64,000 nucleotides of DNA from an uncultured Candidatus Saccharibacteria bacterium. GTDB taxonomy: Bacteria > Patescibacteriota > Minisyncoccia > Phycocordibacterales > JACNGX01. The position numbers and the translations under genes were made by a program. The stretch covers positions 64,615 to 128,614 of the forward strand of contig CAZULS010000001.1 of NCBI GenBank assembly GCA_964621395.1, in the 5' to 3' direction. Each line of letters opens with the position of its first letter. Within the stretch, counting starts at the first letter, position 1. This document shows, piece after piece, positions 8,821-57,274 of the stretch. The notes below the pieces were generated by a model. The model searched no databases. It was not told the DNA's origin and saw only the letters and a list, made by a program, of their open reading frames with translations.

Positions 8821-8934
8821 GTCATCCCGCACTTGATGCGGGATCTTGCAAAACCAAAGATAGTCTTTGGTTTTGTCCGTAACCCACTTTTCGAAACAAC
8901 TCGCTCGAGATCCCGCATCAAGTGCGGGATGACA
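8821..8934. repeat. Palindromic composite. Two identical GTCATCCCGCACTTGATGCGGGATC hairpin units in inverted orientation flank a 63-bp core with a central palindrome aaaccaaagatagtctttggtttt.
   Basis: 8821-8845 and the reverse complement of 8909-8934 are identical; seen in sequence. Confidence 0.6.
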
Positions 8935-17909: not shown

Positions 17910-18227
17910 ATGTATTCATTAGCACAAAAGGCACTCGATTATAAAATCGACAGACCAAGCACTCCTGCTTGGAAAGAGCAGCTGCTCAGTAGTATGTTCG
18001 ATGATTTTTTCTCCACCACAGAATCTTCGGACACTCTAATGGCTGGCTTTTTCTTGGTACCTATAACCTTGCTCGGTCTATTGGCAGGCATGTATGTGTT
18101 GCAGGGTACGTATGATCGCGCAATTGTGACTATAGTATTTGCTATGGTTCTTGTACTACTCTTTCTCTCTATGTGCCTCAATGCCAATGCGGTCGATGAA
18201 AGGAGGTTGTGGAAATACTCATTATAG
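17910..18227 (+). CDS. Small 2-TM membrane protein (105 aa)
   Basis: ORF track. Hydrophobic helices. Its 5-prime leader and N-terminus resemble the next gene (taatgtattcattagcacaaaag vs taatgcattattcattagtacac). Confidence 0.45.
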   Translation: MYSLAQKALDYKIDRPSTPAWKEQLLSSMFDDFFSTTESSDTLMAGFFLVPITLLGLLAGMYVLQGTYDRAIVTIVFAMVLVLLFLSMCLNANAVDERRLWKYSL

Positions 18228-18288: not shown

Positions 18289-18609
18289 ATGCATTATTCA
18301 TTAGTACACCACTCTGTCTCTCATAAGGTTGAGAGAGAAAAAGAAAGAAAAAAGAGGAGAAATATCTTATTTCTCCTCAAGAAAAACATCTCCTGGGTAA
18401 TAGGAGTTGTAATATGCAGCTTACTTGGCTTCGTATGCTTCAAAGCGGGTTTCGGAGGTATGCCAGAGGCAGCTGCTTCCGAGGAGAGAGACGCGTGGGC
18501 ATTTGTCGTGGTTCTAGGATGTTTTTTCCTTTTTCTTGGTTTCGGCGCTTATCTCAATTTAAGAGATGAGGTTATTGAAGAAAAGAGAAAGTTGCATCCA
18601 AAACTTTAG
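18289..18609 (+). CDS. Small 2-TM membrane protein (106 aa), paralog of 17910..18227
   Basis: Similar start context and topology. Confidence 0.45.
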   Translation: MHYSLVHHSVSHKVEREKERKKRRNILFLLKKNISWVIGVVICSLLGFVCFKAGFGGMPEAAASEERDAWAFVVVLGCFFLFLGFGAYLNLRDEVIEEKRKLHPKL

Positions 18610-19954: not shown

Positions 19955-20099
19955 AAGTTAGGAATTAGGAATTAGATTGCGCTTCGTGCAAAGGAAAAGA
20001 CAAAGAAAAAAATAAAAAAGCCAAAATACAAAACACACGGCGGCACCGAAGGTGCCGCCGTGTGTTGTATACATATTTCGTATTTCATTTTTCTTATTT

Positions 20100-20298
20100 C
20101 TAGAACCCATCTCATATTAAATGACTTATTCTCGTGCCACATATTCGCAGCGTAGATGTCTCGGAGACCGTGCCGCACTTTTGTGCGGTGCAGTTGAGAG
20201 ACAAGGTGCAGCCGAATATGTGGTGCGAGAATTGCCAAGCTCTTACACGAAGTGTAAAAAGTATTATCTTAGCGGTTTAATATGAGATGGGTTCTAGT
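20100..20298. mobile_element. MITE-like element, M family variant (TIR CTAGAACCCATCTCATATTAAA / TTTAATATGAGATGGGTTCTAG), 199 bp
   Basis: Perfect 22-bp TIRs, and an internal core homologous to the other M copies (gagaccgtgccgcacttttgtgcggtgcagttgagagacaaggtgcagcc). Confidence 0.7.
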
Positions 20299-20299
20299 T

Positions 20300-21595
20300 T
20301 CAGTAATTCACATTCTCCATTGCCTCATCGATGCGGAGAATCCATGGCGTCATGTCGCGCTTATTGGTAAAGAGAAGGAGTGAGCCGTCGTCGCTCAGAA
20401 TTGGGTTGATCAAGTCGATGGTGGCATCATACATATTTGGATCAACAAGAAAGAAGCCGGTAGACTCTTCGACATCGTAGTACCATATATCATCTTCAAA
20501 GAACATTTCCCCTTTGTACCACGTGTCGGGATATTGGATAAAAGGAAGGGAAAATGGCACTCCGCAATAGACACCCTCCCCCGCCGTGTCCCAGACACAT
20601 TTTTCAGGAAGTGTATCAAAAAGGAGCGCTGTTTCTTCCCCATCTGAGAAGACTTTTAGTATGAGCGTGTTCCCCAAGCTTTCAGAGAAAAGCACTTTCG
20701 TGCCGTCGGGGTTGACGAGTGTGGTGAGACCATTTATGCCGCTCAATAGAGGATTAAGTGTGCTTGAGGAGAGCGATGTGTAGTAGCTGTACCCGGGAAC
20801 AGATGCCGAGGGCTTTGTGGTGAGGTAGATATAGTCGTCTTCCGCCCAGTCGATAAGCCATTCGGAGAGCGGCGAAGAGAATGTCTCTTTCGGGCCTTCT
20901 CCGGAGAATGGCACAATAATGCCGCGAGAGCCACTTTGCGTTCGCTCAAGGAGAAAGAGTGAGTCTTGCGAGGGGTTGGTATCGAATGTAAGAGTACCGG
21001 TGCGGAGGAATTCTGCCTGAGCAACACCAATGACTTCCCCCTCTTCTTCTGCCGTGGAGATTGAAATGCCGGTCCCCTCAACAACATCAGTATCATTCAG
21101 TGAACGAGTAAAAAGCTGTGATCCGTCGGCACTGAAGAGTGCATCGTGAATATGCGGGATGGTTGTGTTGGTAATACGCGTTGCCTCAAGTGTGTCAACG
21201 GGGATATCAAATATATGTCCGGTCGCTTTTGTGATCACGCGAATAGCAAGAACATCCTCAGCCCCTTCTGTTTCTTCCTGTATTTCGGAGAGAGTGACAA
21301 ATGTCGCTCCTGACACGGGCTCGGGGAATACTTGGGAGATAAGGTCGATAGCGGGTTGAGTGCCGTCACTTGGCGTTGTGCCTCCCTGGGTACCATTCTC
21401 CTCTCCCCCACCGAAGAGAGAACCGAGAACACCCCCTCCTTCACCGCCAAAGAGAAAGCTAAAAAAACCACCACTTTGTATTTCCTCGGAAGTGTTATTG
21501 CGGTTGAGAAACATCATTCCCGCACCAGCAAGGATGGCGACGATAATGAGGATGAATCCCCAGAGAATAATTTGTTTTTGTCGTGCGCTGTTCAT
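20300..21595 (-). CDS. N-terminally membrane-anchored extracytoplasmic protein with a Gly-rich linker; last gene of the T4SS-like operon
   Basis: TM helix at residues 12-30, GGEGGG linker, and beta-rich C-terminal region. Confidence 0.5.
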   Translation of the reverse strand: MNSARQKQIILWGFILIIVAILAGAGMMFLNRNNTSEEIQSGGFFSFLFGGEGGGVLGSLFGGGEENGTQGGTTPSDGTQPAIDLISQVFPEPVSGATFVTLSEIQEETEGAEDVLAIRVITKATGHIFDIPVDTLEATRITNTTIPHIHDALFSADGSQLFTRSLNDTDVVEGTGISISTAEEEGEVIGVAQAEFLRTGTLTFDTNPSQDSLFLLERTQSGSRGIIVPFSGEGPKETFSSPLSEWLIDWAEDDYIYLTTKPSASVPGYSYYTSLSSSTLNPLLSGINGLTTLVNPDGTKVLFSESLGNTLILKVFSDGEETALLFDTLPEKCVWDTAGEGVYCGVPFSLPFIQYPDTWYKGEMFFEDDIWYYDVEESTGFFLVDPNMYDATIDLINPILSDDGSLLLFTNKRDMTPWILRIDEAMENVNY

Positions 21596-21600
21596 AGATG

Positions 21601-22623
21601 TTATTGAAAGAATGTCTTTTGAGTCTCTCCGAAGATGATGGATAGTGTCTCCGAAAAAGCTTGAAGTATGTATTCGGGGGAGGTAATGGAGAGGGAGACA
21701 GCCGTGTTCCCCGTTGTACCTTCCGGAACATCAATAGCCAAATCCCCCGGATTACTCCAATGCGACGGAACGGACACGCCTCCCACAGACCAGTCGTAAG
21801 AAAGCGACGAACGATTCAAATCATACGTGGAAAAGAAATACGGTTCGGCACGAAGGACGGTTTCTCTGTCTTCAAATACAGCACCGTCTGCAAGGGCTTC
21901 ATGGAAACGCACGCCGAGCGCTGGATGCTCTTCATAGAGTATGATTTCCGGATCGACTTCGGGAATGGAAATTGCCGCGCTTGCGCCAAGCGTGCCGCTC
22001 TGGGAGAGTGCTTCAACGGCAATTGTCTCAGCGGGGAGAAGTATATTTTTTTTCATTGTGAGGGTTGATTTCCCATATCCCGATTGGCTTTGTACATCGC
22101 GTTTGAAATTGTTACGGCTCCACGTATAGACAAGATTATTTTCAGAAATGCGCGCGCCACCTTGAGTGGTGATGTGTGGAACGGCAATGACCTTCACAAA
22201 TGCACCGGAAGCCGGAAGCGCCTTTCCTTTATAAAAAGGGGGTGTGTATGTTTGGGAGGCCTCCCAGAGGAGATCAATACTTTGTGGTGTGACAGAAAGA
22301 AACTTTTCATACACCGCATTCCCAATGCTGATTGTGGTGCGTATGGATGTCGTTTCCCCGGCGGAAGAAACAGGAAGAGAGAGGATCGTCATGCCGGGAG
22401 CGCTGTCCGAGAGAACACCGTCGACATACCAGGTAATGGTTGCTCTATCAAGATCGACGGCGTATGACGAGAGGGAGACGGTGACTGTTTCTCCCGGGCG
22501 CGGATACGCCGGCGAGATGCTCACGTCGATGTGCGGTTCGAATGCGTGTACCGCTCTCGTAGAAAGGAGAGTGGCACAGAGTACCAGAGGAAACAGGATT
22601 GTTGTGAGGAGAGTTTTTACCAT
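21601..22623 (-). CDS. Secreted hypothetical protein (signal peptide MVKTLLTTILFPLVLCATLLSTRAVHA)
   Basis: ORF track. Start moved to Met31, 7 nt after the VirB4 stop. Confidence 0.5.
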   Translation of the reverse strand: MVKTLLTTILFPLVLCATLLSTRAVHAFEPHIDVSISPAYPRPGETVTVSLSSYAVDLDRATITWYVDGVLSDSAPGMTILSLPVSSAGETTSIRTTISIGNAVYEKFLSVTPQSIDLLWEASQTYTPPFYKGKALPASGAFVKVIAVPHITTQGGARISENNLVYTWSRNNFKRDVQSQSGYGKSTLTMKKNILLPAETIAVEALSQSGTLGASAAISIPEVDPEIILYEEHPALGVRFHEALADGAVFEDRETVLRAEPYFFSTYDLNRSSLSYDWSVGGVSVPSHWSNPGDLAIDVPEGTTGNTAVSLSITSPEYILQAFSETLSIIFGETQKTFFQ

Positions 22624-22630
22624 AGATGTA

Positions 22631-24496
22631 TTATACCACGCCAGCAATGCTTGAAAGCGGATTGTCCGGAGCCTCATTCCCGCCGCTTTCTTTGAGGGCT
22701 TTCTTTGCTTCACGAATCTGGAGTACCTGTGAAGGATCGGAGGTGATGATTTGCTCCTCGGTGTAGGAAGCGAGGATTTTTATGGCAACGTGCTTGAGCC
22801 CTGCGAAGAATATACCTTCGCCGACATCGGATTCAAGAAGCAAAAATTTCTCTTCGTCGGTGAGATTGAATGTCTTTTGAACGGTGTCGATGGCTGTCGG
22901 TGATTGCTTGAGGAGAAGCTGGATTGAGGAGTTGGTGATAATCGGCAAGCCATACGGTGAACGAAGGAAGTCGGACACATCTTGGGTGATGGTTGCCACG
23001 CCAAGATAGTATTTTCGACCACGTTTCGTCATGCCAAAGAGGAACGATGCCGTGTCTTCGGATTTCATCATCCACCATGCCTCATCGATCACGAGAAGTC
23101 GCTTTTTAAGCTCGCGGCGAACGGCATTCCAGATAAAGTGGGTGATGATGTGCATGGCAACCGTCTTAAGCTCATCTTCCATATCACGCACAGAGAAGAC
23201 CACAAACTTTTTATTGATATTGATATTGGTTGGGCGGTTGATAAATTCAGACCACGTACCTTTTGTGTATTTTGAAAGACGATTGAGAAGTGACTCCCCT
23301 CCTTCCATGCCGGAGAGTACCATTTCAAAATCGGAAAGAAGCGGCGGTACAACATGCGAGAGGTCTGAATCGGGTGTAATGTCTTTGAGTGCGTAGGTTT
23401 CCGTGATGGCACGGTCGATGATGGAATCTTCCTCGGGAGACAGTCCTCCAAGCATGATACGGAAAAGACCGACGAGCGAAATGGTATTGGCACGAAGAAC
23501 ATCAGCCGCCGTCTCATCCTCACTGGGCATGGGAAGGTCGAAAGGATTGATGTGATGAGGAGATGTGAGCGAGATATTAAAATAGCGACCGCCTGCGGCT
23601 TCTGCCATAAATTCATATTCGCGCTCCGGGTCAATCACAATCACCTCCGTATCAAACATGAGGGTGCGAAGAATTTCAAGCTTGGTAGCAAACGATTTTC
23701 CGGCACCTGAGGTGGCGAAGATCACGGAATTGTAATTTTCCATTGAGAAACGGTCGAAAAGAACGAGGCTGTAATTGTGTCGGTTGATACCGTAGAGAAT
23801 ACCGCGATCGGATGTGAGATTAAATGAGATAAACGGAAAGATGCTAGAGAGCGGCGAAGAATTAAGCTTTGAGTGAATACCGAGCGAGTCGGACCCTGAG
23901 GGAATAACGCTCTTAAACGCGTCTTCTTGCTGGAAGAGGCTGGGCTTGAGATAGACGAGCTTTGATTCGAGAATCGACTTGATTTCCGATTCGATACGAT
24001 CGAGCTCTTCTTCTGTTTTTCCATAGACGGTGATGTAGAGGCCGACATCAAAGAGACGCTCTTGGGCCTGTTGGAGCTGGTCGCGAAGGTTTTCAAGATT
24101 GGCATAGGCGGCGGCAAGCTTCGGATCGCGCACCATACCGCGTTCCTCGCGCATCATAATTTGACTTTCCACCTCGGCAACTTTTTTCTGGAATTTGCGC
24201 AAAATAGCGGCGGTGTCCACCGGATGAATATGGATGGACACATCAAAGACAGCATCGAGGTTTACAATCGGGGAGAACCAGCTGTCGGCGAGATAACGCG
24301 GATAGGAGATGACAAAGAACGTGCGGGCAATACGGTCGCCCAAATTGAGCTCGCGAGGGGTGATTTTAAGTGCCGAGGGAGCAATAACGTCCTTCAATTC
24401 CAATACTGCCGATTCATATATTTCATGCGGCAATACAGGCACCACTTCCGGTGTGTCTTTCCCCTTCCCTATTCCCAATGTATCAAGAAGTGACAT
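22631..24496 (-). CDS. VirB4/TrbE/CagE-family type IV secretion ATPase
   Basis: Walker A IFATSGAGKSFATK, Walker B VIDEAW, 621 aa, domain order typical of VirB4. Confidence 0.8.
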   Translation of the reverse strand: MSLLDTLGIGKGKDTPEVVPVLPHEIYESAVLELKDVIAPSALKITPRELNLGDRIARTFFVISYPRYLADSWFSPIVNLDAVFDVSIHIHPVDTAAILRKFQKKVAEVESQIMMREERGMVRDPKLAAAYANLENLRDQLQQAQERLFDVGLYITVYGKTEEELDRIESEIKSILESKLVYLKPSLFQQEDAFKSVIPSGSDSLGIHSKLNSSPLSSIFPFISFNLTSDRGILYGINRHNYSLVLFDRFSMENYNSVIFATSGAGKSFATKLEILRTLMFDTEVIVIDPEREYEFMAEAAGGRYFNISLTSPHHINPFDLPMPSEDETAADVLRANTISLVGLFRIMLGGLSPEEDSIIDRAITETYALKDITPDSDLSHVVPPLLSDFEMVLSGMEGGESLLNRLSKYTKGTWSEFINRPTNININKKFVVFSVRDMEDELKTVAMHIITHFIWNAVRRELKKRLLVIDEAWWMMKSEDTASFLFGMTKRGRKYYLGVATITQDVSDFLRSPYGLPIITNSSIQLLLKQSPTAIDTVQKTFNLTDEEKFLLLESDVGEGIFFAGLKHVAIKILASYTEEQIITSDPSQVLQIREAKKALKESGGNEAPDNPLSSIAGVV

Positions 24497-24686
24497 ATAG
24501 ATTACAACTGTATTGGCTTACCCAGCCCCACTTTCACCGACAGAGTTGTAATTTTTACGTGCGTTAGAGGCTTCATATACCTTCAAATGATTAATGAAAT
24601 GAATGAGTGAAAGTGGGGCTGGATTGCAGAGGAGTTATCTTACCTTGAACGTTGGATACCTTGTTACTCATTGTATCACGCTTTTA

Positions 24687-25337
24687 CTACAACTGAATCG
24701 GTTTATCGAGCTCGCCGGGGTTAAAGATGCGGTAAAAGAGTTCGATCAATTCTTCCGTACCCAGCGGCGATGTGCGGATGCCGGTGCGTACGAGACCTTG
24801 CTGGACGATGTACGCACGTTGTTCGAGCTGAGAGCGATTGACCTCGAATTCGTCTTCCCCTTTCTTTCCCTCGGGGAACTGTTTTTTCTTCGTTCCCAAA
24901 ACGTCACCGAGGACGCCCGTGTTTGTCGCGATAATTGATGGCGTATACGGGACGACAATGAAGAAATTCTTCGACATGATATTGGTTTGTTCGGTGAATG
25001 TTTTGATGAAGCGAATGTATTCGCGGATCTGCACTTTCGAAAGATCATTCACCTGCTCTTTTTCGCGTCGTTCAAGGAGGGCAACATATGGACGGACATC
25101 ATAGCGGCGGGATTGAATGTAGATTTGCACCGAAAAATCAAGTGAATTGAGGAAATTTTGAAATTGGATGAGGATAGACTGCTGCTCATCCGGAGACTTC
25201 AGCGACATATTTACCGAGGATGTCATCAGTACCATTTTCAGTGACCCATCTTCCATCACAGCCACACCATCCCGCACTTCTTTGATAGGGACGAATTTCT
25301 GAGACGCTTCTGATTTTTTTGCTGTTGATGTTGGCAT
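24687..25337 (-). CDS. T4SS-operon hypothetical protein (216 aa)
   Basis: Operon context only. FVPIKEVRDGVAVMEDGSLKMVL... has no confident family. Confidence 0.45.
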   Translation of the reverse strand: MPTSTAKKSEASQKFVPIKEVRDGVAVMEDGSLKMVLMTSSVNMSLKSPDEQQSILIQFQNFLNSLDFSVQIYIQSRRYDVRPYVALLERREKEQVNDLSKVQIREYIRFIKTFTEQTNIMSKNFFIVVPYTPSIIATNTGVLGDVLGTKKKQFPEGKKGEDEFEVNRSQLEQRAYIVQQGLVRTGIRTSPLGTEELIELFYRIFNPGELDKPIQL

Positions 25338-25352
25338 GGTGATAATAATAGC

Positions 25353-25772
25353 TTACTGTATATTTTTTTGCACATCCAAACTCCAGGCAATATCTTTGAG
25401 CTTGCTTTGCGAGAGTGACGGCACGTGCATCGTCTCTTGAGATGGCATACTCTCTTGGTTAGCCGCTTTTTTCTGTGCCTCTTTCTTTTTCCAATCTTGG
25501 CTCCAGAGGTAAAGCTTGGCTCGCGTTGCATACATGAAGGCAGCTTCCAAGACATCAATGAAAGGGCGGTTGTGTATTTTGAGGAATGCAAGTGCAATGC
25601 CCAAACTCGCAATCGGGAGGATGAGAAGTGCGGCGAAGAAGAGAGGCAACGATACGTAGAGGACATAGGAAATACCTGCTGCTCCCACCAAGTAGAGAAA
25701 CTGGCGAAACGAAAGTGTTCCGGCAAAGATTTTGTCCTCTACCTCGATGAATTGTGGTGTTTGGAATTGCAT
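25353..25772 (-). CDS. PrgI/VirB3-like small 2-TM T4SS protein
   Basis: EDKIFAGTLSFRQFLYLVGAAG followed by two TM helices, a pattern typical of PrgI-family proteins. Immediately upstream of the VirB4-like gene. Confidence 0.55.
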   Translation of the reverse strand: MQFQTPQFIEVEDKIFAGTLSFRQFLYLVGAAGISYVLYVSLPLFFAALLILPIASLGIALAFLKIHNRPFIDVLEAAFMYATRAKLYLWSQDWKKKEAQKKAANQESMPSQETMHVPSLSQSKLKDIAWSLDVQKNIQ

Positions 25773-25855
25773 AAGTGAGTTGCGAGTATCGAGTATCGAG
25801 TTTCAAGCATGGGCACCTACGGTGCCCATAGGCATACTAATCGCGTGTCTTTTTC

Positions 25856-26539
25856 CTACTCCACCGGCTCACGATACGGATCAAGAGGTGTCTTAGGAGA
25901 TGGAGAAGGAGCGGTATCGGACGGTGTTTCTTCACTTCGTGCTTCCTTGAGGACGGTTGTGTCAATCATTTTCTTCTCAACGATATTTTCATGGCGTGGC
26001 TCTCTCTCTTGCGCCGGTAATGCTCCCCCCTCTTGTTCTTTCATGAAGGTGTCCCCCGGCGCTTTTTGTGTCATGCGAGGCTCCTTTCGCTCGGCTGCCG
26101 GAGCAGGATTCTCAATTTCTTTGAGAAGTTCAGCGCGGGTTGGTAAGTGCATTGCCATTTCTTCGTCCTCTTCCTCGGCCGATTCCGCTTTAGCGGGGTT
26201 TAGGCTTTCCTCCACAGCACTCTCTTTCGGACCGCCGAGAGACGCACGCATCGGCTCAAGAATTTCGGTGTTCACATCGATGAGAATTGCTTCAGCAACC
26301 TCCGTAGGTATACCAAGTTCTTCGGTAAGTGTTGGAAGATAGTCCGAGCGCTCTACAAAGCCGAGAATGACCAATCCGGTAACATCATTGAGTATGCCGA
26401 GCTGATCGATATGCAGGTTGTGACGCGTACCAATACGGCGAAGCTGCTCGCCCGTTTCTGCCGAAGCGAGTGCTTCTTGCACCGGTGCGGGCATAGAGGC
26501 AAACCGCTCATCCAATTGTTCTTGTGTGAAGTCAATCAT
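25856..26539 (-). CDS. Acidic hypothetical protein of the T4SS-like operon
   Basis: ORF track; no motif recognised. Confidence 0.4.
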   Translation of the reverse strand: MIDFTQEQLDERFASMPAPVQEALASAETGEQLRRIGTRHNLHIDQLGILNDVTGLVILGFVERSDYLPTLTEELGIPTEVAEAILIDVNTEILEPMRASLGGPKESAVEESLNPAKAESAEEEDEEMAMHLPTRAELLKEIENPAPAAERKEPRMTQKAPGDTFMKEQEGGALPAQEREPRHENIVEKKMIDTTVLKEARSEETPSDTAPSPSPKTPLDPYREPVE

Positions 26540-26555
26540 ATGTGTCTATATGTGA

Positions 26556-29066
26556 TTATTTCTTCTCCGCATCTTTTTTATCTCCACTGCCCTCGCTTGA
26601 TTTATTCAGAGCATCGCGGAGATTGCGACCTGTTTTTTCAGCCAGCTTTGATAGTTGCTCAAGGTCCTTCTTTTTACCCTCGAGATCTATCTTATTTTTT
26701 TCATGTCTGTATTTCGCATCACGAGCAGTTTCCAGTTCACGGGTCTTTGCTTTTCCTTCCGGTCCGGTGCGCTCTGATTGAGTCATACTGTTTAATGTTG
26801 CCAAGAGAGATTCTTCACGTTTTGCTTCTTTCTTCAGACTGAGGTTAATGTTGCGAAGGTTTACGTTGAGTACTCCAAGTGTATTTTCAGAGGCCGTTTT
26901 CCATTCACCAGGGGAGGCATCAGCTGCCGCAAGACTACTGAAACGATCGTCTTTCTTCAGGGCTTCAAATTTCGCTTCATCCCGTTCTTTCTCAAGACGT
27001 TTATCTTTACCCGCATCTACTTTCTTAAGAATCTTTCCACTCGCTTCCATCTTTCCTCCCTTCGGTGCGCTTTGGTAGAGGCCCTTCATATCTTCCGCCT
27101 GCTGAGCTCTTCGTGCTTTGATTTCTTCTTTCTGCTGTGTCAGCTTAGCGTCAATTGCCCCACGCTCTTCCTCCGACTTGCCTATCTTCTTAAGTTTGCC
27201 GAAAATAGAGTTTACGGCAAGTCCTGCGGACTCCGGAATATTACCAATCTTCATGAATGTTGGCAGAGATTCCTTCTGAAGGTTCTCAGCGAATTCTTTT
27301 CGTGCAGCATCAGCGTACTTGTCGCCCACTTTGCCAAATGAATCAGCAAGTTTGATATTTTCTTTCTCTCGTTGTTCCATCTTTCCTTTGAACCCTCCCT
27401 TGCCGCGATCTTTGCCCCATGCTCCAATATTTTTGTCAGCTCCCACTTGACCGCCAATTTTCGTTCTCCTGATATCAAAGCTGCTCGTTGCTGCTGTATC
27501 CAAGCCGCGAAGCGCCAATCGCCCTGCCCAGTTTTGTCCCCATGATTGTCGTCTTGCTTCATCTTTACCAAGACTGGTTGCAAGACCGCCAAGTCTCTTT
27601 CGAAGCACTGCTCCGCCAACGCCGCCTGCCGCAAGACCAAGCGCTCCGCCGGCGAGTCCGGCGACTCTTTTACTGATGTCGAGAGAGACTCCGGCAAACG
27701 AGCCACATCTTTTGTCCGTCTGATCTTTGCCATATTTCAGAAGGAGAATGATGACACCAAACTTAAGCGCAAGCACAATGATGAATTCAAGGAAGTTGAG
27801 ACCCGATGTATTGTCGCTTGCCAGGAAGAGATTTGTTGCGTTAGAGGGGTCAGCAAAAATGACAGCAAGCCACACGAAGAAGAGAAAGATGACAATACAA
27901 AACGATTTACCTACAAGCTCTTTCCAGAAATATTTTTGTGTGGGGCTACTCGACTGTGGCAGTATCATGCTCACAAACGCCAAAGGCGAAGCGGCCATGA
28001 GTATCCACAAAACGACAATACGGGAAAGGAACAGAAATCCCGTGATAAAAAATATCCATGCCATGTAAAACATCATGGTAAAGGAGGCGACATAGAGAAA
28101 TACGAGTTTCCATACATCCCCTGTTTGTGCCATGTCTTCTCGTTCCTGGAGCATTTGCTGCGGGTCAATTTTTGTCATGAGCGTTGTGGAAACACCTTTT
28201 ACTTCTCTTCCGTCTCTATTTATAGCATCGGATTTGAGAGCAGCACCTTGCTCAGCCCTTCCATTGAGATTGCCGATTTCTGTTGTTTTAAAGCTATCGT
28301 AGAAAAACAGCGCAGCCATATTGCCAGCATCAATAATGACGCGGGTTACAAAGAGGCTGAAATTAATGAGAAGGGCAACGATGATGACCTTATGCAGAAG
28401 GTCTTTCGCCGTATTTTTGGGGATTCGAAGGATGGTGGCAATGGAAATCCACAGGAGGATGAAAATAAATGCAGCATTTGCCAAATCGCGGATATTTTCC
28501 CATGCACCTTCTACGAAGGTCTGGTTAATAATGTTGGGACTGATACCAAAATGGAGGAGGTAGTCGAAAAGAATGCCGGCACCCGCCATGGTGTGTCCGG
28601 AGACGATGAAGATGCCGTACATGACATGTCCGATACAGTTTCCTATCCCCACATTGTCAAGCCCACAACTGCCGAAAGGGCTGCTCCCCGTTGCTCCACT
28701 AAGAGGATTTGCCTCGTTTTGCATGTCCTCCAATGCTTGCTGACCCTCCTCTTCGCTTTGGCAGGTTGCCGGGAGACATGTGATATTATAGCCTCCTTGG
28801 TTTGCAAGGCTTACCTCCATGTTTTTTACGGACTGATCATTACAGCTTGTTGACCCATGTACTGTCTGGTGTGCACTGTACGAGGTTCCATACATGTCCC
28901 TAACGTATTGTATTCGACAATCAGCAGAAGCAATTGAGGGAATACAGACGAATAAAAAAAGCACAGGAAAAAACCATATGTTTTTGGGGAAGCTGTTGCC
29001 TTGTGTTTTGAAAAAAGACGTGAAGAAAGAAAACATACTACACATATATTGTACCAAAACATACAC
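26556..29066 (-). CDS. VirB6/TrbL-like polytopic membrane protein with an N-terminal Cys-rich extracellular domain and a long charged coiled-coil C-terminal tail (836 aa)
   Basis: Signal/TM, at least 6 TM helices mid-protein, K/E-rich repetitive tail, operon context. Exact start uncertain (Met1/8/11). Confidence 0.5.
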   Translation of the reverse strand: MYVLVQYMCSMFSFFTSFFKTQGNSFPKNIWFFPVLFLFVCIPSIASADCRIQYVRDMYGTSYSAHQTVHGSTSCNDQSVKNMEVSLANQGGYNITCLPATCQSEEEGQQALEDMQNEANPLSGATGSSPFGSCGLDNVGIGNCIGHVMYGIFIVSGHTMAGAGILFDYLLHFGISPNIINQTFVEGAWENIRDLANAAFIFILLWISIATILRIPKNTAKDLLHKVIIVALLINFSLFVTRVIIDAGNMAALFFYDSFKTTEIGNLNGRAEQGAALKSDAINRDGREVKGVSTTLMTKIDPQQMLQEREDMAQTGDVWKLVFLYVASFTMMFYMAWIFFITGFLFLSRIVVLWILMAASPLAFVSMILPQSSSPTQKYFWKELVGKSFCIVIFLFFVWLAVIFADPSNATNLFLASDNTSGLNFLEFIIVLALKFGVIILLLKYGKDQTDKRCGSFAGVSLDISKRVAGLAGGALGLAAGGVGGAVLRKRLGGLATSLGKDEARRQSWGQNWAGRLALRGLDTAATSSFDIRRTKIGGQVGADKNIGAWGKDRGKGGFKGKMEQREKENIKLADSFGKVGDKYADAARKEFAENLQKESLPTFMKIGNIPESAGLAVNSIFGKLKKIGKSEEERGAIDAKLTQQKEEIKARRAQQAEDMKGLYQSAPKGGKMEASGKILKKVDAGKDKRLEKERDEAKFEALKKDDRFSSLAAADASPGEWKTASENTLGVLNVNLRNINLSLKKEAKREESLLATLNSMTQSERTGPEGKAKTRELETARDAKYRHEKNKIDLEGKKKDLEQLSKLAEKTGRNLRDALNKSSEGSGDKKDAEKK

Positions 29067-29106
29067 AGAAGAACACTATTGATTTGTGTATATAAAAACT
29101 CCCGCA

Positions 29107-29631
29107 TCAATATGCACGGGAGTTTTGGGCAAGTTTTTCCACGCCCTGAAAATAACCCTTTTCTCTCAGAGTATCGTAGTCGTCCGGACGCATACCAAAC
29201 CCTTCAGTGTAGAAACGAAACAGCAAGACATCCACGTCCAGTTTCTTCTTACGCATTATTGTTTCATATACCTCATAATAGAGCGAGTCAAATGCGGGGT
29301 CATAGAGCCCGCCTGTCGTCTCTACCGCTATAACGAATATAATATCTGACTTTATTCGTTCTGCTGAGAATCCGTTTTCGTTGCCCCCTTTCTCTATCTT
29401 AGCAAACATGCCCTGTTGCTTGTTGCGCACGACAACAGTAACAACGCGCATGAAGAATTTTTTCGATTCTTTAAGTATTTTCTGGTCGTCGATAGGGACT
29501 TCATTGAGGACCCATTTCTCGACCTGGTTAAGGTTAAGGGAGTCCTCATATACCTGCTTCTCTGTGGTTTTGCATCCACCGAAGAAGAGGATGGGTGCGA
29601 TAACGAGCAGTATCGGTATTATTTTTTTCAT
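29107..29631 (-). CDS. Lipoprotein (MKKIIPILLVIAPILFFGGC lipobox)
   Basis: Signal peptide with Cys at the lipobox position. Confidence 0.55.
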   Translation of the reverse strand: MKKIIPILLVIAPILFFGGCKTTEKQVYEDSLNLNQVEKWVLNEVPIDDQKILKESKKFFMRVVTVVVRNKQQGMFAKIEKGGNENGFSAERIKSDIIFVIAVETTGGLYDPAFDSLYYEVYETIMRKKKLDVDVLLFRFYTEGFGMRPDDYDTLREKGYFQGVEKLAQNSRAY

Positions 29632-29849
29632 TTCGTTCTCCGTTTGGGGCGGCGGCGTGAGCCGCCGCTAGGGTTTATTTGTACAAGTACAAAATAGATT
29701 ATTCTGCCCACATACTAAACAATTTAGACTGTTTTGTCAATAGGACGTGTTGGGGGACATGTGGATAACTCAAGTTCTCGACATTTGGAAGATTTGGAGA
29801 GCCCTTACTGTGGACGAGAGTCTTTTAGTCGTTGTCTCCTTCTCCGTCG

Positions 29850-31376
29850 CTATTCATTTGAGCTGAGGCTGAGAAAGCTGTTGTAATTTATGGCGACGAT
29901 ATCATATATTTCATGCGCACGAGCAATCATTGCCGTGTGCGCGGGAGACTGTTCAAGCGCAATACTTGTTCCGAACATTCTCGTCATAGCAGCATTTCTT
30001 TGCTTGAAATTATTGTATGCTTCCCATGCATTAATTTTGTCGACTGACTCTCTCGCCACTTCTGCCTGAGCAAGAAGTGATTCCAACTCTGAGATATAGA
30101 CCTCAAGAGACCCTGTTGAGTCGGCTTGAGTGAGTATGAGCGTTGTTTCGTCTTGAATGGTGATGGCTTCACCGCGGAGTCCGGAGAGCTCGTTCACGGA
30201 GAGGAGTCCGGGGTATCCCAACAGTGCGTCTTCATAGTCGTCTTGGTCAGAAAGAGTGGCATCGATAGTGATAATGGCTTCCCTCACAGCTTCTCGTGCG
30301 TCAATCACATTGGCAAGGAAGTCATTTGTCGAGTGTACGAGCGCGAGGTCTTCCTCGATAGCTTTAATAAGATTTTGGTCGGGTTCGGGTGCGTACGATC
30401 CGCTCCCGTAGAATCCATACGACGAAGATCCGCCGCCGGTGAGTGTGTCGCGGACACCGCTTCGAATACTGCTTCGTGCCGCGTCAAAACCATTATTAAT
30501 AATACCTGCAACAAGCTCTTGGAGCGTTGCGGTGAGGATTTCTCCAATATCGTCGGCATTTTCAAGGGAATCTACTCGTGAACCGAGAGCATTGCTCATT
30601 TCCGCAGCAACGAATTGTCCCGGATTGACTCGTTCCCAGTTAATACAACCGTCTGAAGCATCGATGGAGCCGTCGCCATTGGTGTCGATACCAACCGACT
30701 CAATACAATTTCCCGGAAGTGAAAGGACGCCTCCCCCCTCGTTGAGCTCACGATAGATTTCGTTTTTCTTCTCCTCTACGCGCCGCCGATTTTCTTCCAT
30801 CGCCATATAATACTGGCCATAGGGGTTATTTTGCGGTTCAAGCGTTGAAAGGAAACCGGTCCAGCCTCCCTGAGAGAAATCGTCAAAAAATGCTTCCGGC
30901 TCCACGAGAACATCTTCAATTGTGGACTGCGCGCGGATTGCGTATGGCGTGTAGGTAACAGAGAGAAGTTTCATCATGCCTCGTTTGAGCGGTTCGTAGG
31001 TGTCGAGACCGGCGATTTCTCCGATAAGGTTGTTGGTGACATCTCGGGAAAGCTTGGCAATAAACGCTTGAGGATCCACCAAGAACATAAGATCACCGAA
31101 AAATCCTTGCTCCACAAGTGTTTTTACTTCCATCACGATGTCATTGATGATTGTTTTGGCGAGCATCCATGCGACGGTGTCGAGACCTATGGTGCCGGCG
31201 ATGCCCTCGCGAGGATCACGCGTAAGGTCGGATGTGACGATAACGGCGCTTCCTGATGCTGTGGCATGTGTGTGCGTGGGCACGAGAGTTATCCCAAGGG
31301 GAAGAACAAAAAGCGCAATCGCAATGCCAGCGCCCCAACGGGAGAAAGAAAATGTTGTGTGTCCGAACATGTACAT
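29850..31376 (-). CDS. Large secreted hypothetical protein (508 aa)
   Basis: N-terminal signal/TM; no family recognised; operon context. Confidence 0.45.
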   Translation of the reverse strand: MYMFGHTTFSFSRWGAGIAIALFVLPLGITLVPTHTHATASGSAVIVTSDLTRDPREGIAGTIGLDTVAWMLAKTIINDIVMEVKTLVEQGFFGDLMFLVDPQAFIAKLSRDVTNNLIGEIAGLDTYEPLKRGMMKLLSVTYTPYAIRAQSTIEDVLVEPEAFFDDFSQGGWTGFLSTLEPQNNPYGQYYMAMEENRRRVEEKKNEIYRELNEGGGVLSLPGNCIESVGIDTNGDGSIDASDGCINWERVNPGQFVAAEMSNALGSRVDSLENADDIGEILTATLQELVAGIINNGFDAARSSIRSGVRDTLTGGGSSSYGFYGSGSYAPEPDQNLIKAIEEDLALVHSTNDFLANVIDAREAVREAIITIDATLSDQDDYEDALLGYPGLLSVNELSGLRGEAITIQDETTLILTQADSTGSLEVYISELESLLAQAEVARESVDKINAWEAYNNFKQRNAAMTRMFGTSIALEQSPAHTAMIARAHEIYDIVAINYNSFLSLSSNE

Positions 31377-31400
31377 GGAATAAAAGAAAACGGATAAATA

Positions 31401-32396
31401 TTACTCACTTGAGAGGGTAAAGATAGTTCCCGACTCAGAGGAAGAAAAGGTTATGCCGCGACGTGCAATTTCCGCAACGACCTCATCCACGGATTCCCAG
31501 AAAACGGTAAGGGTTGTTTGGTACTGTGCGAGACCGGCAAAACCAAGAACGATATCATCTTCACTTGCGGCAATACGCGAAAGTGTTTCGGCGATGATTG
31601 CCACGGCATTCACAAGGGAGAGATGGATATCGGAGAGTGATGCGGGTGCGGTGTGTGAAAGAAGAGAATCGGCGGTATGGGAGAAAAATGTGGCGAATCG
31701 CCCAAGTGCGCGCAAATCGCCCAAACGATCGTTCGTAACGGCCTCAGAGATGATCGCGAGCTCATAGGGGCTTCCCAGTGTGTTGTATTCAGCGATATGC
31801 TCCCCTAAAGCGTTGGCGTATGTGCGCAGTGTTTCGTCGGAATCGTCGCCGATGGAGATGTTCTCTTCTGTGTAGGGATTGGTAATGGCGTTTTGGAGCA
31901 CTTCAGTGGCAAGGAGCGTGTTGAGTACGTCCATATCTCCGAGTGTTGTGCCACCGCTCTTTTGGGAACTTTCATGGAGAGAACTCAGGAAAGCACGCGC
32001 CATTGAATTGGTGCGTGTGGATGAGGCATCATTAACATCTTCAGCGCTTCCGGGAACAAGCGGATATGACTCCAGTGAATCATCGCTCTGATTGATGAGG
32101 GGATTTCTCCGAGACGCGATTTCAATGCCGTCTTCTGTGCCGTCACCGTCGGAATCGGCGACGTTCGGATTTGTCCCCCAGAGCGCTTCTTCCCACATGG
32201 CAAGACCGTCACCGTCGGCGTCGGATGAGAAATGAGCCAATTCTTCTTCGGTGTGAGTCGGGGTGGACGCATCTTCTTGGGATATATATTTCTCCGTGTT
32301 GGAAAAGAGGTACGACGAGACGACAAAAAGAGCAATAAGGACGAGCACGACAAGCGTGAATCTCTTACTGGGGAGATAGTGGGTGATGTGTTCCAT
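31401..32396 (-). CDS. Membrane-anchored protein with DGDG/DSDGDG calcium-binding-like repeats
   Basis: N-terminal TM; SSDADGDGLAMWEEALWGTNPNVADSDGDGTEDGIE; first gene of the minus-strand operon. Confidence 0.45.
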   Translation of the reverse strand: MEHITHYLPSKRFTLVVLVLIALFVVSSYLFSNTEKYISQEDASTPTHTEEELAHFSSDADGDGLAMWEEALWGTNPNVADSDGDGTEDGIEIASRRNPLINQSDDSLESYPLVPGSAEDVNDASSTRTNSMARAFLSSLHESSQKSGGTTLGDMDVLNTLLATEVLQNAITNPYTEENISIGDDSDETLRTYANALGEHIAEYNTLGSPYELAIISEAVTNDRLGDLRALGRFATFFSHTADSLLSHTAPASLSDIHLSLVNAVAIIAETLSRIAASEDDIVLGFAGLAQYQTTLTVFWESVDEVVAEIARRGITFSSSESGTIFTLSSE

Positions 32397-32455
32397 TGAT
32401 TTCTATTATACAAAAAGAATGGATGTCAACCAATAGGGGTGTGTATGAACAGGCT

Positions 32456-32644
32456 CTTAGAACCAATTAAATAACCTACGCAAAAAAGTAAAAGAGGGAT
32501 GCTCCGGGCAGTCGACGAGCAACATCCGGCATAAAAACCGCGAAAATTCTTCACCATATCTCGATATGGCTCAAAATTTGATCAATTTTTCTGCTCGAAT
32601 GTTGCTCGTCTTTATGCTCCGGAGGTTATGTAATCGGTTCTAAG
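32456..32644. mobile_element. MITE-like element, L family, copy 1 (TIR CTTAGAACCAAT...ATCGGTTCTAAG), 189 bp
   Basis: About 90 percent identical to the reverse complement of 34736-34924. Its right TIR supplies the TAG stop of the lnt-like gene. Confidence 0.7.
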
Positions 32645-34178
32645 GTATGGAAACAATGAGAAGCTCCGCTTTTCCACGGGCGGTACTGTGAGTGATTGTG
32701 CCGGAAGGGTTAATGAGAAAAGACGGTACACCATTTCCCGCGTGGATAAAGTGTCGACCGTGTGTCACGGCGTGGATACGTGCTTGGCGAGTGACGAATG
32801 TCCGGAGTGTGTCGCTGCCGTGAAACGATGAATGAGATGCTGTATTTACAAAAAGATCACTTCCCTCACGCGCTCCGGCAGCGTAAAGTTGTGGGGGTGT
32901 GATTTCCGCACAGAAAAGTGCGGTGATTGTGTAATTATGTACGGAGCCGAGGGTGACGGGTGCGTCGAAAGGATCGGGTGTGTACACGCGACGGTTGCGA
33001 AATGTGTCACGCCACTGGGGAGCGATTGTTTCGGCGATGGTGGCAGCGAAAGCGGGCAGGTATTCGCCAAATGGTGTGAGGAAGCGTTTGTGATATGTGC
33101 CCGCAATTGTGCCCTCCGAAGTGTAGAGGTGGTGTGCCAAACGCAAATCACCGCTTTCCTCTCGGTATGTGGTTGAATCTATGGTCGCGCCCCGAGGTGA
33201 AAGATGGGAAGAGAGAAACGTGCCGCGCTCTTCTTCGGAAAGCGACGAAAGGAAGCGAGAATCTTCGGGAAAGACAAGGAGGTCAAGGGTCGGAGTGTTT
33301 TCGGAGAAGAGCGCGGCTATGTCGCTGTGAGTGTGCTTAAGGGTGGTTTGGGTTGAGCCGAATTCGGATATGCTTTCCGTGTGGATGATACCAATAGTGA
33401 GTGAATCGGAAGAGGAGAGTACAGAGCTGCCCTCCTTTCGAGACAATACTGATGGAACAATGATAATGCCGACAAGAGAGAGGATGATTAGTGCTCGAGA
33501 CATGAGAGACGATGCGCGGTCAATACACACAGCAATTCCCATATTGATATAGACAGCGATAAGAGAAAGGGCCGTGAGACCGCCTATGCTTGCGTACAAC
33601 AGAAGTGATGTGTCACTGAGGGGGGCGCCGGCAAAACCGAATGTCCAATACGGACCGATAGCGGCTTCAGGAGCATACCAAAGAACAGAAAAGAGAAAGG
33701 CGCGGAGGTATTCTGTGAGCACAAAAAGGAGTGTTCCCAAGGAAAGAGTACGGAATACTCCACCTTTAAGCCGTGCAATGAGCCAGGCAAAGAGCGCAGG
33801 GCCGATTGAAAGGACAAGCGTCCCTAAGAGCCATACGGAAGCAATAACCGCATATGACACAACAGGGCTTTCAATGCCGACCCATGTGAGCGGGTATGTG
33901 TCGAAAAACCAAAAAATACTGGCACCGAGCCCGAGGATGCCATAGATGAATCCGCCGATAGCGGCGCGCTTCGGTGATTGTGCGCGAAACACAAAGAAGA
34001 AAAACGGCACGAGCGCGATGAGTGAGAAGAGGCCGGTACCGGGAAAGAGAAACAGACTTGCACTCATCATACCGCTCAAAAGCGGGAGAAGATATGAATC
34101 AGGGCGAGTGAATGGTGAGAGGTGCTCGGGCATGGGTATAGTATAAATGAAAAAGAACAAACAAAAAACGGAAAACAA
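32640..34178 (-). CDS. lnt: Apolipoprotein N-acyltransferase-like protein (polytopic N-terminal domain + C-terminal CN-hydrolase)
   Basis: 7-8 N-terminal TM helices; LLVFPEDSRF (Glu), ALFCAEITPPQL (Cys of the catalytic triad). Confidence 0.55.
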   Translation of the reverse strand: MFSVFCLFFFIYTIPMPEHLSPFTRPDSYLLPLLSGMMSASLFLFPGTGLFSLIALVPFFFFVFRAQSPKRAAIGGFIYGILGLGASIFWFFDTYPLTWVGIESPVVSYAVIASVWLLGTLVLSIGPALFAWLIARLKGGVFRTLSLGTLLFVLTEYLRAFLFSVLWYAPEAAIGPYWTFGFAGAPLSDTSLLLYASIGGLTALSLIAVYINMGIAVCIDRASSLMSRALIILSLVGIIIVPSVLSRKEGSSVLSSSDSLTIGIIHTESISEFGSTQTTLKHTHSDIAALFSENTPTLDLLVFPEDSRFLSSLSEEERGTFLSSHLSPRGATIDSTTYREESGDLRLAHHLYTSEGTIAGTYHKRFLTPFGEYLPAFAATIAETIAPQWRDTFRNRRVYTPDPFDAPVTLGSVHNYTITALFCAEITPPQLYAAGAREGSDLFVNTASHSSFHGSDTLRTFVTRQARIHAVTHGRHFIHAGNGVPSFLINPSGTITHSTARGKAELLIVSIP

Positions 34179-34239: not shown

Positions 34240-34722
34240 TTATCGCCCAACGATATCCCCTATCCTCACATTGTGCAGACGTGTGAAACCTGAGGGTACC
34301 TCAAGAACATATGAGGCCGGAATCGGCGAGCCAAACAATGTCGGATATGTATCGGGGGAAACACGTCTTTCAATATGAATAATGGTATGTGTCTCATCGA
34401 GCCAGAGAATATCGATAGAGAAGTGCATATCTTTCATCCACATATTGTGAGACCCGGGTGTATCGAAGACAAAAAGCATGCCGGTATCGGGAAGAAGTGC
34501 TTTGCGGCCAGAAAGACCGAGAGCACGCTTTTCTTCCGTGTCGGCAATGTCGGCGGTGATGAGCGTGCCGCCGATTGCGATAAGTTCTCGCTGGTATCCT
34601 TCGGCGAATGATATGTTTCCAAAAGAGAAAGAGAAGGGATCGCCTTGTGCGGAAGAGACGACGATATTGCCGGCAATAAAGGCGACGGCAAGTGTAATGA
34701 GAATGCCAATGAGTGATTTCAT
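34240..34722 (-). CDS. DUF192 (COG1430) family secreted protein
   Basis: GLSGRKALLPDTGMLFVFD, NMWMKDMHFSIDILWLD; signal peptide. Start moved to MKSLIG. Confidence 0.7.
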   Translation of the reverse strand: MKSLIGILITLAVAFIAGNIVVSSAQGDPFSFSFGNISFAEGYQRELIAIGGTLITADIADTEEKRALGLSGRKALLPDTGMLFVFDTPGSHNMWMKDMHFSIDILWLDETHTIIHIERRVSPDTYPTLFGSPIPASYVLEVPSGFTRLHNVRIGDIVGR

Positions 34723-34735
34723 GAATGTATTATAA

Positions 34736-34924
34736 CTTAGAACCAATGAAATAACCTCCGGAGCACAAAGACGAGCAACATTCGAGCAGAAAAATTGATA
34801 CACATTCTGAGCCATATCGAGATATGGTGAGGAATGTTAGCGGTTTTTATACCGAATGTTGCTCGTCGACTGCCCGGAGCAGTGACTTCTTATTTTTTGC
34901 GTAGGTTATTTAATTGGTTCTTGG
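34736..34924. mobile_element. MITE-like element, L family, copy 2 (inverted relative to copy 1), 189 bp
   Basis: TIR CTTAGAACCAATG...ATTGGTTCTTGG. Overlaps the last 6 codons and TAA stop of rsmA. Confidence 0.7.
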
Positions 34925-35706: not shown

Positions 35707-35906
35707 CTAGAACCAGTCTCACTGAAAATGGCTTGTTCTCGCGCCCAAACAGCGAGCGAGCCGATGTCGCGGAGACCGCGCCGCACTCTCGTGCGGTGCG
35801 GTTGAGCGACAAGGCGCAGCCGCTGTTTGGGCGTGGGAACTGCCAAGCGCAGCTCTTGAGTACGATTCCCTTATTTTTTCAATGTTTTCAGTGAGACTGG
35901 TTCTAG
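35707..35906. mobile_element. MITE-like element, M family, 200 bp, immediately upstream of rsmA
   Basis: TIR CTAGAACCAGTCTCACTGAAAA / TTTTCAGTGAGACTGGTTCTAG; conserved core. Confidence 0.75.
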
Positions 35907-57270: not shown

Positions 57271-57274
57271 ATTA

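Follow-up and report, generated by a model that had tools for sequence, protein, structure and literature searches.

A run of ten genes on the minus strand, at positions 20300–32396 of a 64-kb stretch of contig CAZULS010000001.1 (the whole stretch that was analyzed, hereafter the window), raises the question of whether it is a piece of a mobile conjugative element or a secretion apparatus that serves the cell carrying it. The initial annotation had proposed a non-conjugative machine that resembles a type IV secretion system (T4SS) and acts in host interaction. This reading was supported by hidden Markov model (HMM), profile, and structure tests, and by the absence of relaxase, type IV coupling protein (T4CP), and VirB11 genes from the window. 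The evidence spoke neither for nor against the competence-like alternative of the initial annotation. The locus is very probably the chromosomal, origin-proximal T4SS of a Parcubacteria/Paceibacteria-type Patescibacterium and not a mobile element; the closest named relatives of the source organism are Candidatus Yonathbacteria. The system is of a kind already published (described in 2023–2025) that most Patescibacteria, ultra-small bacteria dependent on a host, have beside their replication origin, and the locus is real and well conserved, not new. What is new here is a group of five conserved partner proteins without annotation and an unusual constraint on VirB4.

Features by which a Patescibacteria-clade T4SS is recognized were found here: VirB4, an adjacent PrgI/TrsD, VirB6, no relaxase or T4CP, and a location near the origin. 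The core genes are arranged as B6-B3-(TrsD)-B4, as in the Gram-positive conjugation systems of pCF10 and pGO1. Six further proteins are embedded with VirB4/TrsD, PrgI, and VirB6, and five of them recur in one fixed order in dozens of species.

All ten minus-strand open reading frames (ORFs) that had been annotated were present and intact, encoding, from the last gene to the first, proteins of 431, 370, 621, 216, 139, 227, 836, 174, 508, and 331 aa. The gaps between them, previously given as 4–40 nt throughout, were 5, 7, 190, 15, 83, 16, 40, 218, and 24 nt in the same order, the 7-nt value being obtained after correction of the start of the 370-aa ORF. Relatives of this ORF align only from about residue 31–43, and a signal peptide follows Met31, which is most likely the true start (ATG 22623) and gives a protein of 340 aa. 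The apparent overlap of the ORF with virB4 arose because the ORF list takes the first possible start, and the Met31 start removes it. A public gene call splits the 836-aa ORF into proteins of 93 and 754 aa. This split was rejected and the long form kept, because the 94-aa ORF has no homologue and all long homologues share the N-terminal signal-like segment and variable region.

The 621-aa protein, annotated as a VirB4-family ATPase, was confirmed as such. It matched Pfam P-loop_TraG (3e-27) as well as AAA_10 and DUF87, and with 374.9 bits it exceeded the cutoff (325) of its best NCBIfam model, conju_CD1110; next came the models for VirB4 of a Mycoplasma integrative and conjugative element (ICE), F-type TraC, and VirB4_CagE. 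The nearest solved structure was that of Thermoanaerobacter VirB4 (4AG5, E=8e-41); R388 TrwK matched with E=8e-6. The Walker A motif (GAGKS at residue 264) and the Walker B motif (LLVIDE at residue 467) are both intact, and the protein looks like an active ATPase. It was 73–97% identical to the VirB4s of Parcubacteria/Paceibacteria metagenome-assembled genomes, the closest named genome being Candidatus Yonathbacteria, and an identical (100%) VirB4 was found on one NCBI contig and one 12-kb Logan contig. Judging from these identities, the conju_CD1110 match, and 4AG5, the protein groups with Patescibacteria-clade VirB4s of the MPF-FATA type.

The 216-aa protein, left open in the initial annotation, is not VirB3-like and resembles TrsD, a stand-alone VirB4 N-terminal domain. 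It matched NCBIfam VirB4_plasma at positions 98–233 (8e-11), CD1110 at positions 2–119 (4.5e-5), and TrsD (3.6e-4), and it carries the TraC-like domain PF26593, a newer Pfam family present in the precomputed annotation. Because this protein covers positions 2–119 and the 621-aa VirB4 spans positions 184–732 of the CD1110 model, the two genes tile one full-length VirB4 model, which matches the TrsD plus TrsE arrangement of the pGO1 type. Among PHROGs, only a generic 'terminase large subunit' P-loop family matched VirB4 and the TrsD-like protein, which was uninformative.

The 139-aa protein with two transmembrane (TM) segments had been described as PrgI-like and indeed matched Pfam PrgI above its cutoff (6.5e-10; 39.9 bits against 27). 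PrgI homologues were found in 76 of the 81 related loci described below. The 836-aa polytopic protein, annotated as VirB6-like, gave no direct Pfam match itself; Pfam TrbL/VirB6 was matched by 14 of 44 homologues (best 1e-10), and the family consensus matched Pfam TrbL at 6e-8, above the gathering score. The top Protein Data Bank (PDB) match of the family profile was TrwI, the VirB6 of R388 (E=0.019). An AlphaFold2 model built from 44 sequences had a helical membrane core at residues ~140–460 with a predicted local distance difference test score above 90, and the top three PDB matches of the model in Foldseek were TrwI chains (probabilities 0.97–0.82, E ~0.2–0.6). The protein comprises a signal-like N-terminus, an ectodomain that is variable and contains five Cys residues, ~6–7 TM helices (~140–460), and a K/E-rich helical tail (residues 556–836; 17% K, 12% E). 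These lines of evidence, weak to moderate singly, jointly support its assignment as an 'extended VirB6'.

No relaxase, VirD4/T4CP, VirB11, or VirB2 was detected by Pfam in any ORF of at least 150 aa in the window, which agreed with the initial annotation for relaxase, VirD4, and VirB11. No oriT and no integration/excision module bounding an element were found in the window either. The lack of a relaxase or T4CP nearby is the reason why the machine is taken to serve a host-dependent lifestyle and not conjugation. For the VirB2 pilin, neither PF04956 nor PF18895 matched in the window; a VirB2-like pilin is frequent but not universal in the family. Small ORFs in the 190- and 218-nt gaps were considered as pilins and rejected, as 24497–24686 and 29632–29849 contain no ORF longer than 50 aa. 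Two small ORFs of 105 and 106 aa (17910–18227 and 18289–18609), are located between yidC and the gene for a TrmB-like regulator, and each encodes two hydrophobic segments. They had no family match and were not conserved in the locus of the closest relative, and they were rejected as VirB2-like candidates after giving no pilin or other family match.

Conservation of the cluster was analyzed in 81 related loci (80 species representatives and one Tara contig), which were selected by VirB4 similarity and searched with iterated profiles of each window protein. The order KsgA-331-508-VirB6-227-PrgI-TrsD-VirB4-370-431, which includes nine of the ten cluster genes, was found on one strand in 34 complete loci, and shortened versions of the same nine-gene order were found in most of the others. 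Since the order recurs in dozens of species, the cluster is not a chance assembly. Its housekeeping neighbors (KsgA, YidC/Jag, and DnaA) were likewise found in the relatives. In the window, dnaN, dnaA, rpmH, rnpA, yidD, yidC, and jag flank one side and ksgA the other, and the cluster lies between jag/yidC and ksgA, ~4.3 kb from dnaA. The comparison with Patescibacteria T4SS loci that the initial annotation had called for bore out its reading, the dnaN-dnaA-rpmH-rnpA-yidC-jag/KsgA context being that given for Paceibacteria in a published survey (PMC12102498). In the closest relative (locus L002, a 144-kb Tara contig), homologues of the 508- and 331-aa proteins were not located upstream of VirB6. 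A 486-aa homologue (P0245), 37% identical to the 508-aa protein, was present on this contig outside the 10-kb flank, which shows that the upstream half of the cluster is able to move to another position.

The cluster proteins differed widely in their conservation. The median identities of the window proteins to their relatives were 75.6% for VirB4, 57% for the TrsD-like protein, 55% for DnaA, 47% for both PrgI and KsgA, 46% for DnaN, 39% for YidC, 30% for both the 340- and 431-aa proteins, 29% for the 227-aa protein, 27% for the VirB6-like protein, 26% for the 508-aa protein, and 25% for the 331-aa protein. A gradient thus runs from the highly conserved cytoplasmic and membrane core (VirB4, TrsD, and PrgI) to the exposed parts at 25–30%. 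Against the closest relative, the identities were 97% for VirB4, 90% for TrsD, 83% for PrgI, 65% for the 431-aa protein, 53% for the 340-aa protein, 52% for the 227-aa protein, and 42% for VirB6. Among 48 relatives, VirB4 was more conserved than DnaA in all 1128 of 1128 genome pairs (median 79% versus 58%), and it was also more conserved than DnaN, KsgA, and YidC in every genome pair compared. The choice of loci by VirB4 may inflate the VirB4 identities somewhat, with the direction of the within-pair comparison unaffected. Recent horizontal transfer as the cause of this conservation was ruled out by the 4-fold degenerate sites of conserved residues, which are as saturated in virB4 as in dnaA (identities of 0.30 and 0.28, respectively). 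Because these sites are saturated in both genes, the conservation of VirB4 reflects purifying selection over a long divergence, and the contrast with DnaA argues for long vertical descent under constraint.

Five of the conserved proteins have no annotation: an Ig-like protein, a probable beta-propeller protein, a TSP3-repeat protein, a helical 508-aa protein, and a predicted cytoplasmic protein ending in DPYREP. The 340-aa protein, whose homologues directly follow virB4 in 72 of the 81 loci, carries a signal peptide and is secreted; its Ig-like beta-sandwich repeats are indicated by weak Ig_3, Hoc, and PKD matches only. The 431-aa protein (60 of 81 loci) is anchored by a TM segment at residues 9–27 and contains conserved motifs including a Cys pair (EKCVW...YCxVP). 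Its family profile gave thirteen weak PDB matches, twelve of them to TolB chains (E 0.007–0.45), and single family members matched PD40 or DPPIV_N. These matches point to a probable TolB/PD40-like beta-propeller as its ectodomain.

The repeats that had been noted as DGDG in the 331-aa protein are two bacterial TSP3 (Ca-binding DxDGDG) repeats at residues 59 and 81, which follow a TM segment at residues 13–31 and precede a helical C-terminal domain. The family consensus matched Pfam TSP3_bac (2.9e-13), NCBIfam CglD/MtsD TSP3 matches were also obtained, and a PDB profile search with the family found nothing. Homologues of this protein were found in 54 of the 81 loci, always directly upstream of a homologue of the 508-aa protein, which was itself present in 55. 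The 508-aa family comprises 5592 representatives (50%-identity) at E<=1e-3. Its window member combines a conserved N-terminal domain of ~250 aa (WINSGFxGxP, GGW, PQNNPYG, and a conserved Cys pair) with a C-terminal variable helical bundle. Neither the protein nor the family consensus matched Pfam or NCBIfam, and the AlphaFold2 model, built from 8 sequences, was confident only at residues 330–508, the model of the conserved domain being unreliable. Single members gave weak matches to DUF4141 (3 of 53, 1e-4), a family encoded between traG and traJ in Bacteroides conjugative transposons, and to TrbJ (1 of 53, 1e-3). These hint at a possible VirB5/TrbJ/DUF4141-like identity, although neither the consensus nor the PDB profile nor Foldseek gave any such match.

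The 227-aa protein has no TM segment and is therefore predicted to be cytoplasmic. In it, a helical domain of ~100 aa is conserved and is joined by a disordered linker rich in Glu and Pro to a C-terminal DPYRE(P) motif that is nearly invariant in the family (59 of 71 members). Its homologues occurred in 67 of the 81 loci, always between VirB6 and PrgI, and neither the protein nor its family had a PDB or Pfam match. Some relatives carry two tandem copies of the family or a duplicated N-domain within one protein. The possibility that DPYREP is a shared secretion tag was not supported, the motif being present on no other ORF family within ±10 kb in the 81 loci, nor elsewhere in the window. The remaining gene encodes a 174-aa putative lipoprotein (sequence feature MKKIIPILLVIAPILFFGGC). 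The lipoprotein annotated earlier as a partner is thus present, as a putative one, and its status as a partner was not upheld: it had no homologue in any of the 81 related loci and no family match. The gene is specific to this genome, a lineage-specific insertion. Its position recalls that of trbK, a gene for a small lipoprotein located between trbJ and trbL of RP4; the resemblance may be a coincidence.

The survey by Quinonero-Coronel et al. (2025, Microb Genom; PMC12102498) places the Patescibacteria VirB4 as nested in MPF-FATA, with TrsD, PrgI, and VirB6 near virB4. It reports that relaxases are rare and T4CPs rarely near virB4, and that the Paceibacteria cluster lies near dnaA, dnaN, rnpA, rpmH, and ksgA. 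Nothing essential differs in the window, whose cluster has no VirB2-like pilin or VirB1 homologue inside it. Its additions are the lipoprotein gene, the hairpin-forming spacer of 190 nt that precedes virB4, and an insertion of Lnt and DUF192 genes. The five conserved partners are not named in the available part of the survey.

In the Saccharibacterium Southlakia epibionticum ML1, the genes SEML1_0006–0019 are origin-proximal and share one strand, and transposon sequencing showed that epibiotic growth requires them (Wang et al. 2023, Cell; PMC10633639). Their order (VirB6-like ... PrgI, a hypothetical protein in the TrsD position, VirB4, and exported proteins including an Ig-like (PEGA) one) is also that of the window, and, as in the window, no relaxase or coupling protein is recognizable (PMC10633639). 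In contrast, its divergent array of six VirB2-like pilins, triple lysozyme-like protein, NTF2-like (VirB8-type) protein, and two giant VirB6-like proteins were not found here (PMC10633639), and the window cluster has exported partners of its own. This comparison, made by gene description, is an indirect one for the 331-, 508-, 227-, and 431-aa families. In a 2025 review, these Patescibacteria systems are described as the first T4SS that are essential for the organism carrying them (PMC12857230).

The window shares the gene order VirB6-VirB3-VirB4 with the Trs system of pGO1/pSK41 (TrsC-TrsD-TrsE) and the Prg system of pCF10 (PrgH-PrgI-PrgJ-PrgK-PrgL), and the separate TrsD-type VirB4 N-domain protein with the pGO1 subclass; the architecture is monoderm, without VirB7/9/10. 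The best VirB4 models for the window protein are those of Firmicutes or Mycoplasma, and the nearest solved structure is the Thermoanaerobacter one. Compared with MPF-FATA systems, the window has no relaxase, T4CP, oriT, adhesin (PrgB), cell-wall hydrolase (PrgK/TrsG), or VirB8-like (PrgL/TraM) protein. Where pCF10 has PrgK and PrgL, the window has the Ig-like and probable beta-propeller proteins, and very strong constraint acts on the locus, which is chromosomal and inherited vertically. In comparison with R388 Trw and Agrobacterium VirB, VirB4 (TrwK), VirB3, and VirB6 (TrwI) match the inner-membrane core, whereas the VirB7/9/10 outer-membrane core, the VirB2/VirB5 pilus, VirB8, VirB11, and VirD4 are missing; the window VirB6 is 'extended' by its ectodomain and long tail.

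By analogy, the machine most likely serves interaction with the host and not conjugation, and it would transfer macromolecules such as proteins between the epibiont and the host cell. On the sequence evidence it may export effectors, import host material, or only build a surface structure. VirB4 hexamers would dock on the membrane via the TrsD-like domain and PrgI and would energize the assembly of, and translocation through, a VirB6 channel in a single membrane. The fast-evolving exported Ig-like, probable propeller, TSP3, and helical proteins, together with the VirB6 ectodomain, would form the wall-spanning, host-contact part, and the 227-aa protein with its DPYREP tail may be an adaptor or regulator at the cytoplasmic face. 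Several points weigh against this reading. The function is assigned from the essentiality data of Saccharimonadia, whose cluster has in common with the window only VirB4, PrgI, VirB6, the gene at the place of TrsD, and one exported Ig-like protein. The search covered the 64-kb window, and genes for a relaxase, pilins, or a coupling protein may be present in other parts of the source contig. No VirB8- or VirB1-type component was identified, and the roles of the five partners are drawn from predicted localization and weak fold hints. Finally, each match of VirB6 to TrwI is weak by itself (E 0.019 in sequence, 0.19 in structure), and these matches become convincing only with the TrbL Pfam matches.

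It is very improbable that the locus is an ICE remnant or domesticated piece that has no present function or serves only DNA transfer, and we regard this explanation as largely refuted. Conjugation modules of Gram-positive bacteria are indeed the origin of VirB4, PrgI, TrsD, and VirB6 (among NCBIfam models, that of the C. difficile CD1110 family matched best), a miniature inverted-repeat transposable element (MITE)-like element abuts the cluster, and a tyrosine recombinase gene is located 28 kb away. However, the same order and chromosomal neighbors recur in dozens of species, VirB4 is under stronger constraint than DnaA, all ORFs are intact, the GC content of the cluster resembles that of its flanks, and neither relaxase nor T4CP is encoded in the window; copies of the MITE family, moreover, are scattered over the window and border the cluster on one side only. 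A surface structure only, in which VirB4, VirB3, and VirB6 would assemble an adhesive pilus or fiber from the exported partners without translocating cargo, is unlikely. This explanation could draw on the role of VirB4 in pilus biogenesis in Gram-negative systems and on the VirB2-like pilin arrays often carried by Patescibacteria T4SS clusters, both given in the survey (PMC12102498), and on the four exported or anchored fast-evolving proteins encoded in the cluster. Neither the cluster nor the rest of the window yielded a VirB2-like pilin, however; the exported proteins are large (331–508 aa) and three are apparently membrane-anchored, unlike pilins, and separately encoded type IV pili (PilB) already provide adhesion in Saccharibacteria (PMC12857230).

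The third explanation concerns direction and substrate and leaves the identity of the apparatus untouched: the same machine would import host nucleic acid or other cytoplasmic material, for which VirB4-type ATPases are used in DNA uptake by the archaeal Ced and H. pylori ComB systems. We hold this as a tentative possibility. Patescibacteria lack nucleotide biosynthesis, and a 2026 preprint describes RNA acquisition from the host by a cultured member, as well as tubular structures at the interface that are possibly T4SS pili and a monophyletic VirB4 (bioRxiv 10.64898/2026.06.21.733656); a review also speculates on uptake (PMC12857230). The missing coupling protein would fit a system that does not recruit cytoplasmic substrates, and the extreme conservation of VirB4 would fit a core nutritional role. 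Nevertheless, the preprint itself calls the uptake mechanism unresolved (bioRxiv 10.64898/2026.06.21.733656), and deletion of comEC in S. epibionticum left viability unaffected (PMC12857230). In the window, NCBIfam CedB and CedD matched with 34 bits against a cutoff of 700 and 15 bits against 600, respectively, which is generic P-loop similarity only; no other Ced or ComB component was detected, and the cluster encodes neither a CedA- or ComEC-type channel nor a VirB2-like pilin.

The coordinates of the cluster genes and associated elements are given in Table 1.

Table 1. Genes and sequence elements of the T4SS locus and the adjacent origin region (window coordinates)
Feature	Coordinates	Strand	Remark
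331-aa TSP3-repeat protein	31401..32396	-	First gene of the conserved cluster
508-aa exported or anchored protein	29850..31376	-	No annotated family
Sigma-70-like promoter match	29712..29740	-	In the 218-nt gap upstream of the lipoprotein gene
174-aa putative lipoprotein	29107..29631	-	Lineage-specific insertion between the 508-aa and VirB6-like genes
836-aa extended VirB6/TrbL-type polytopic membrane protein	26556..29066	-	
227-aa predicted cytoplasmic protein with DPYRE(P) tail	25856..26539	-	
139-aa PrgI family (VirB3-type) two-TM membrane protein	25353..25772	-	
216-aa TrsD-like protein, stand-alone VirB4 N-terminal domain homologue	24687..25337	-	
190-nt spacer with hairpin	24497..24686	-	Specific to this genome
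621-aa VirB4-family ATPase, MPF-FATA / Patescibacteria type	22631..24496	-	
340-aa secreted Ig-like protein (370-aa ORF trimmed to Met31)	21601..22623	-	
431-aa TM-anchored protein, probable beta-propeller ectodomain	20300..21595	-	Last gene of the cluster
MITE-like element, 198 bp	20100..20297	.	Two bases past the stop codon of the last gene
Intrinsic-terminator-like hairpin	20032..20066	-	Between the cluster and the convergent jag gene
dnaN	13030-14130		Origin region
dnaA	14416-15972		Origin region

Among the non-coding elements, the MITE annotated at position 20100 was recovered as an element of ~198 bp with terminal inverted repeats of ~23 bp (CTAGAACCCATCTCATATTAAAT...). It belongs to a MITE-like family of ~200 bp (terminal inverted repeats CTAGAACCnnTCTCA...) with other copies at 12217–12450, 35707–35906, and 40402–40600 and a partial copy at 57958–58029. 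The family matched no Rfam family at the gathering score, and no RNA family was found anywhere in the window at the Rfam gathering thresholds. After the last gene and the MITE-like element, the strong terminator-like hairpin has a 16-bp stem with 11 GC pairs. The promoter match reads TTGACA-17-TAGTAT (10/12 to the sigma-70 consensus) and amounts to no more than agreement with the consensus, the total of promoter-like sites across the region not exceeding the shuffled expectation; a GC hairpin (29648–29669) is located in the same gap. The spacer between the TrsD-like gene and virB4, which is 2–54 nt long in the relatives, contains a hairpin with a 19-bp stem including a perfect 16-nt inverted repeat (minimum free energy -52.3 kcal/mol, z=-4.2). 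This hairpin may have a regulatory role or be a short palindrome that inserted there, and the promoter match, the terminator hairpin, and the spacer hairpin are weak evidence for transcription signals. REP-like palindromic hairpins (TGTCATCCCGCACTTGATGCGGGATC and variants) were observed on both strands at at least 15 intergenic sites (e.g., 8816–8845, 40656–40685, 47558–47587, and 6931–6963).

Between ksgA and the cluster, the window contains Lnt-like (32640–34178) and DUF192 (34240–34815) genes. Such genes were found at this position in only one relative, and in most relatives ksgA directly abuts the 331-aa gene. An inverted repeat of ~196 nt (32453–32648 and 34732–34927; 85–93% complementary) brackets the two genes, which gives the segment the look of an insertion, an invertible segment, or a duplication. 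PilB (2061–3764; T2SSE 6e-106) is encoded apart from the cluster, as had been annotated, and the rest of the window encodes RuvB, RuvC, TyrRS, PBP1, UvrD, a Clp-type AAA+ ATPase, ComM, PNPase, and other housekeeping functions. An AbiEii toxin/AbiEi antitoxin pair and two NYN-domain genes, together at 56545–57886 and 58111–59499, lie beside the partial MITE copy, and a Xer-type tyrosine recombinase gene is located at 60566–61477. A 455-aa ORF (44675–46042) without a Pfam match contains a 93-nt internal direct repeat, 81% identical (45567–45659 and 45768–45860).

A broader joint reading, which we consider rather doubtful as a whole, would go further. The Paceibacteria T4SS core would be joined to a lineage-specific, fast-diversifying extracellular module that replaces the pilus, VirB8, and VirB1, and this module (the Ig-like protein, the anchored beta-propeller, the Ca-binding TSP3 protein, and the 508-aa family) would determine the host range. 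The DPYREP-tailed 227-aa protein would be a new cytoplasmic adaptor standing in for the missing coupling protein, and the slower evolution of VirB4 than of DnaA would mark the machine as a central feeding organ that imports host macromolecules, e.g., RNA.

As a T4SS of the published kind, the locus is a clean and complete Paceibacteria example and adds no new kind of system. The nine-gene order, the constrained VirB4, the fast-evolving exposed partners, the DPYREP protein, and the 508-aa family with its 5592 representatives provide targets for structural and genetic work. Few machines are plausible causes of the host dependence of a large fraction of bacterial diversity, and the Patescibacteria T4SS, which is essential in the only genetically tractable member, is one of them.

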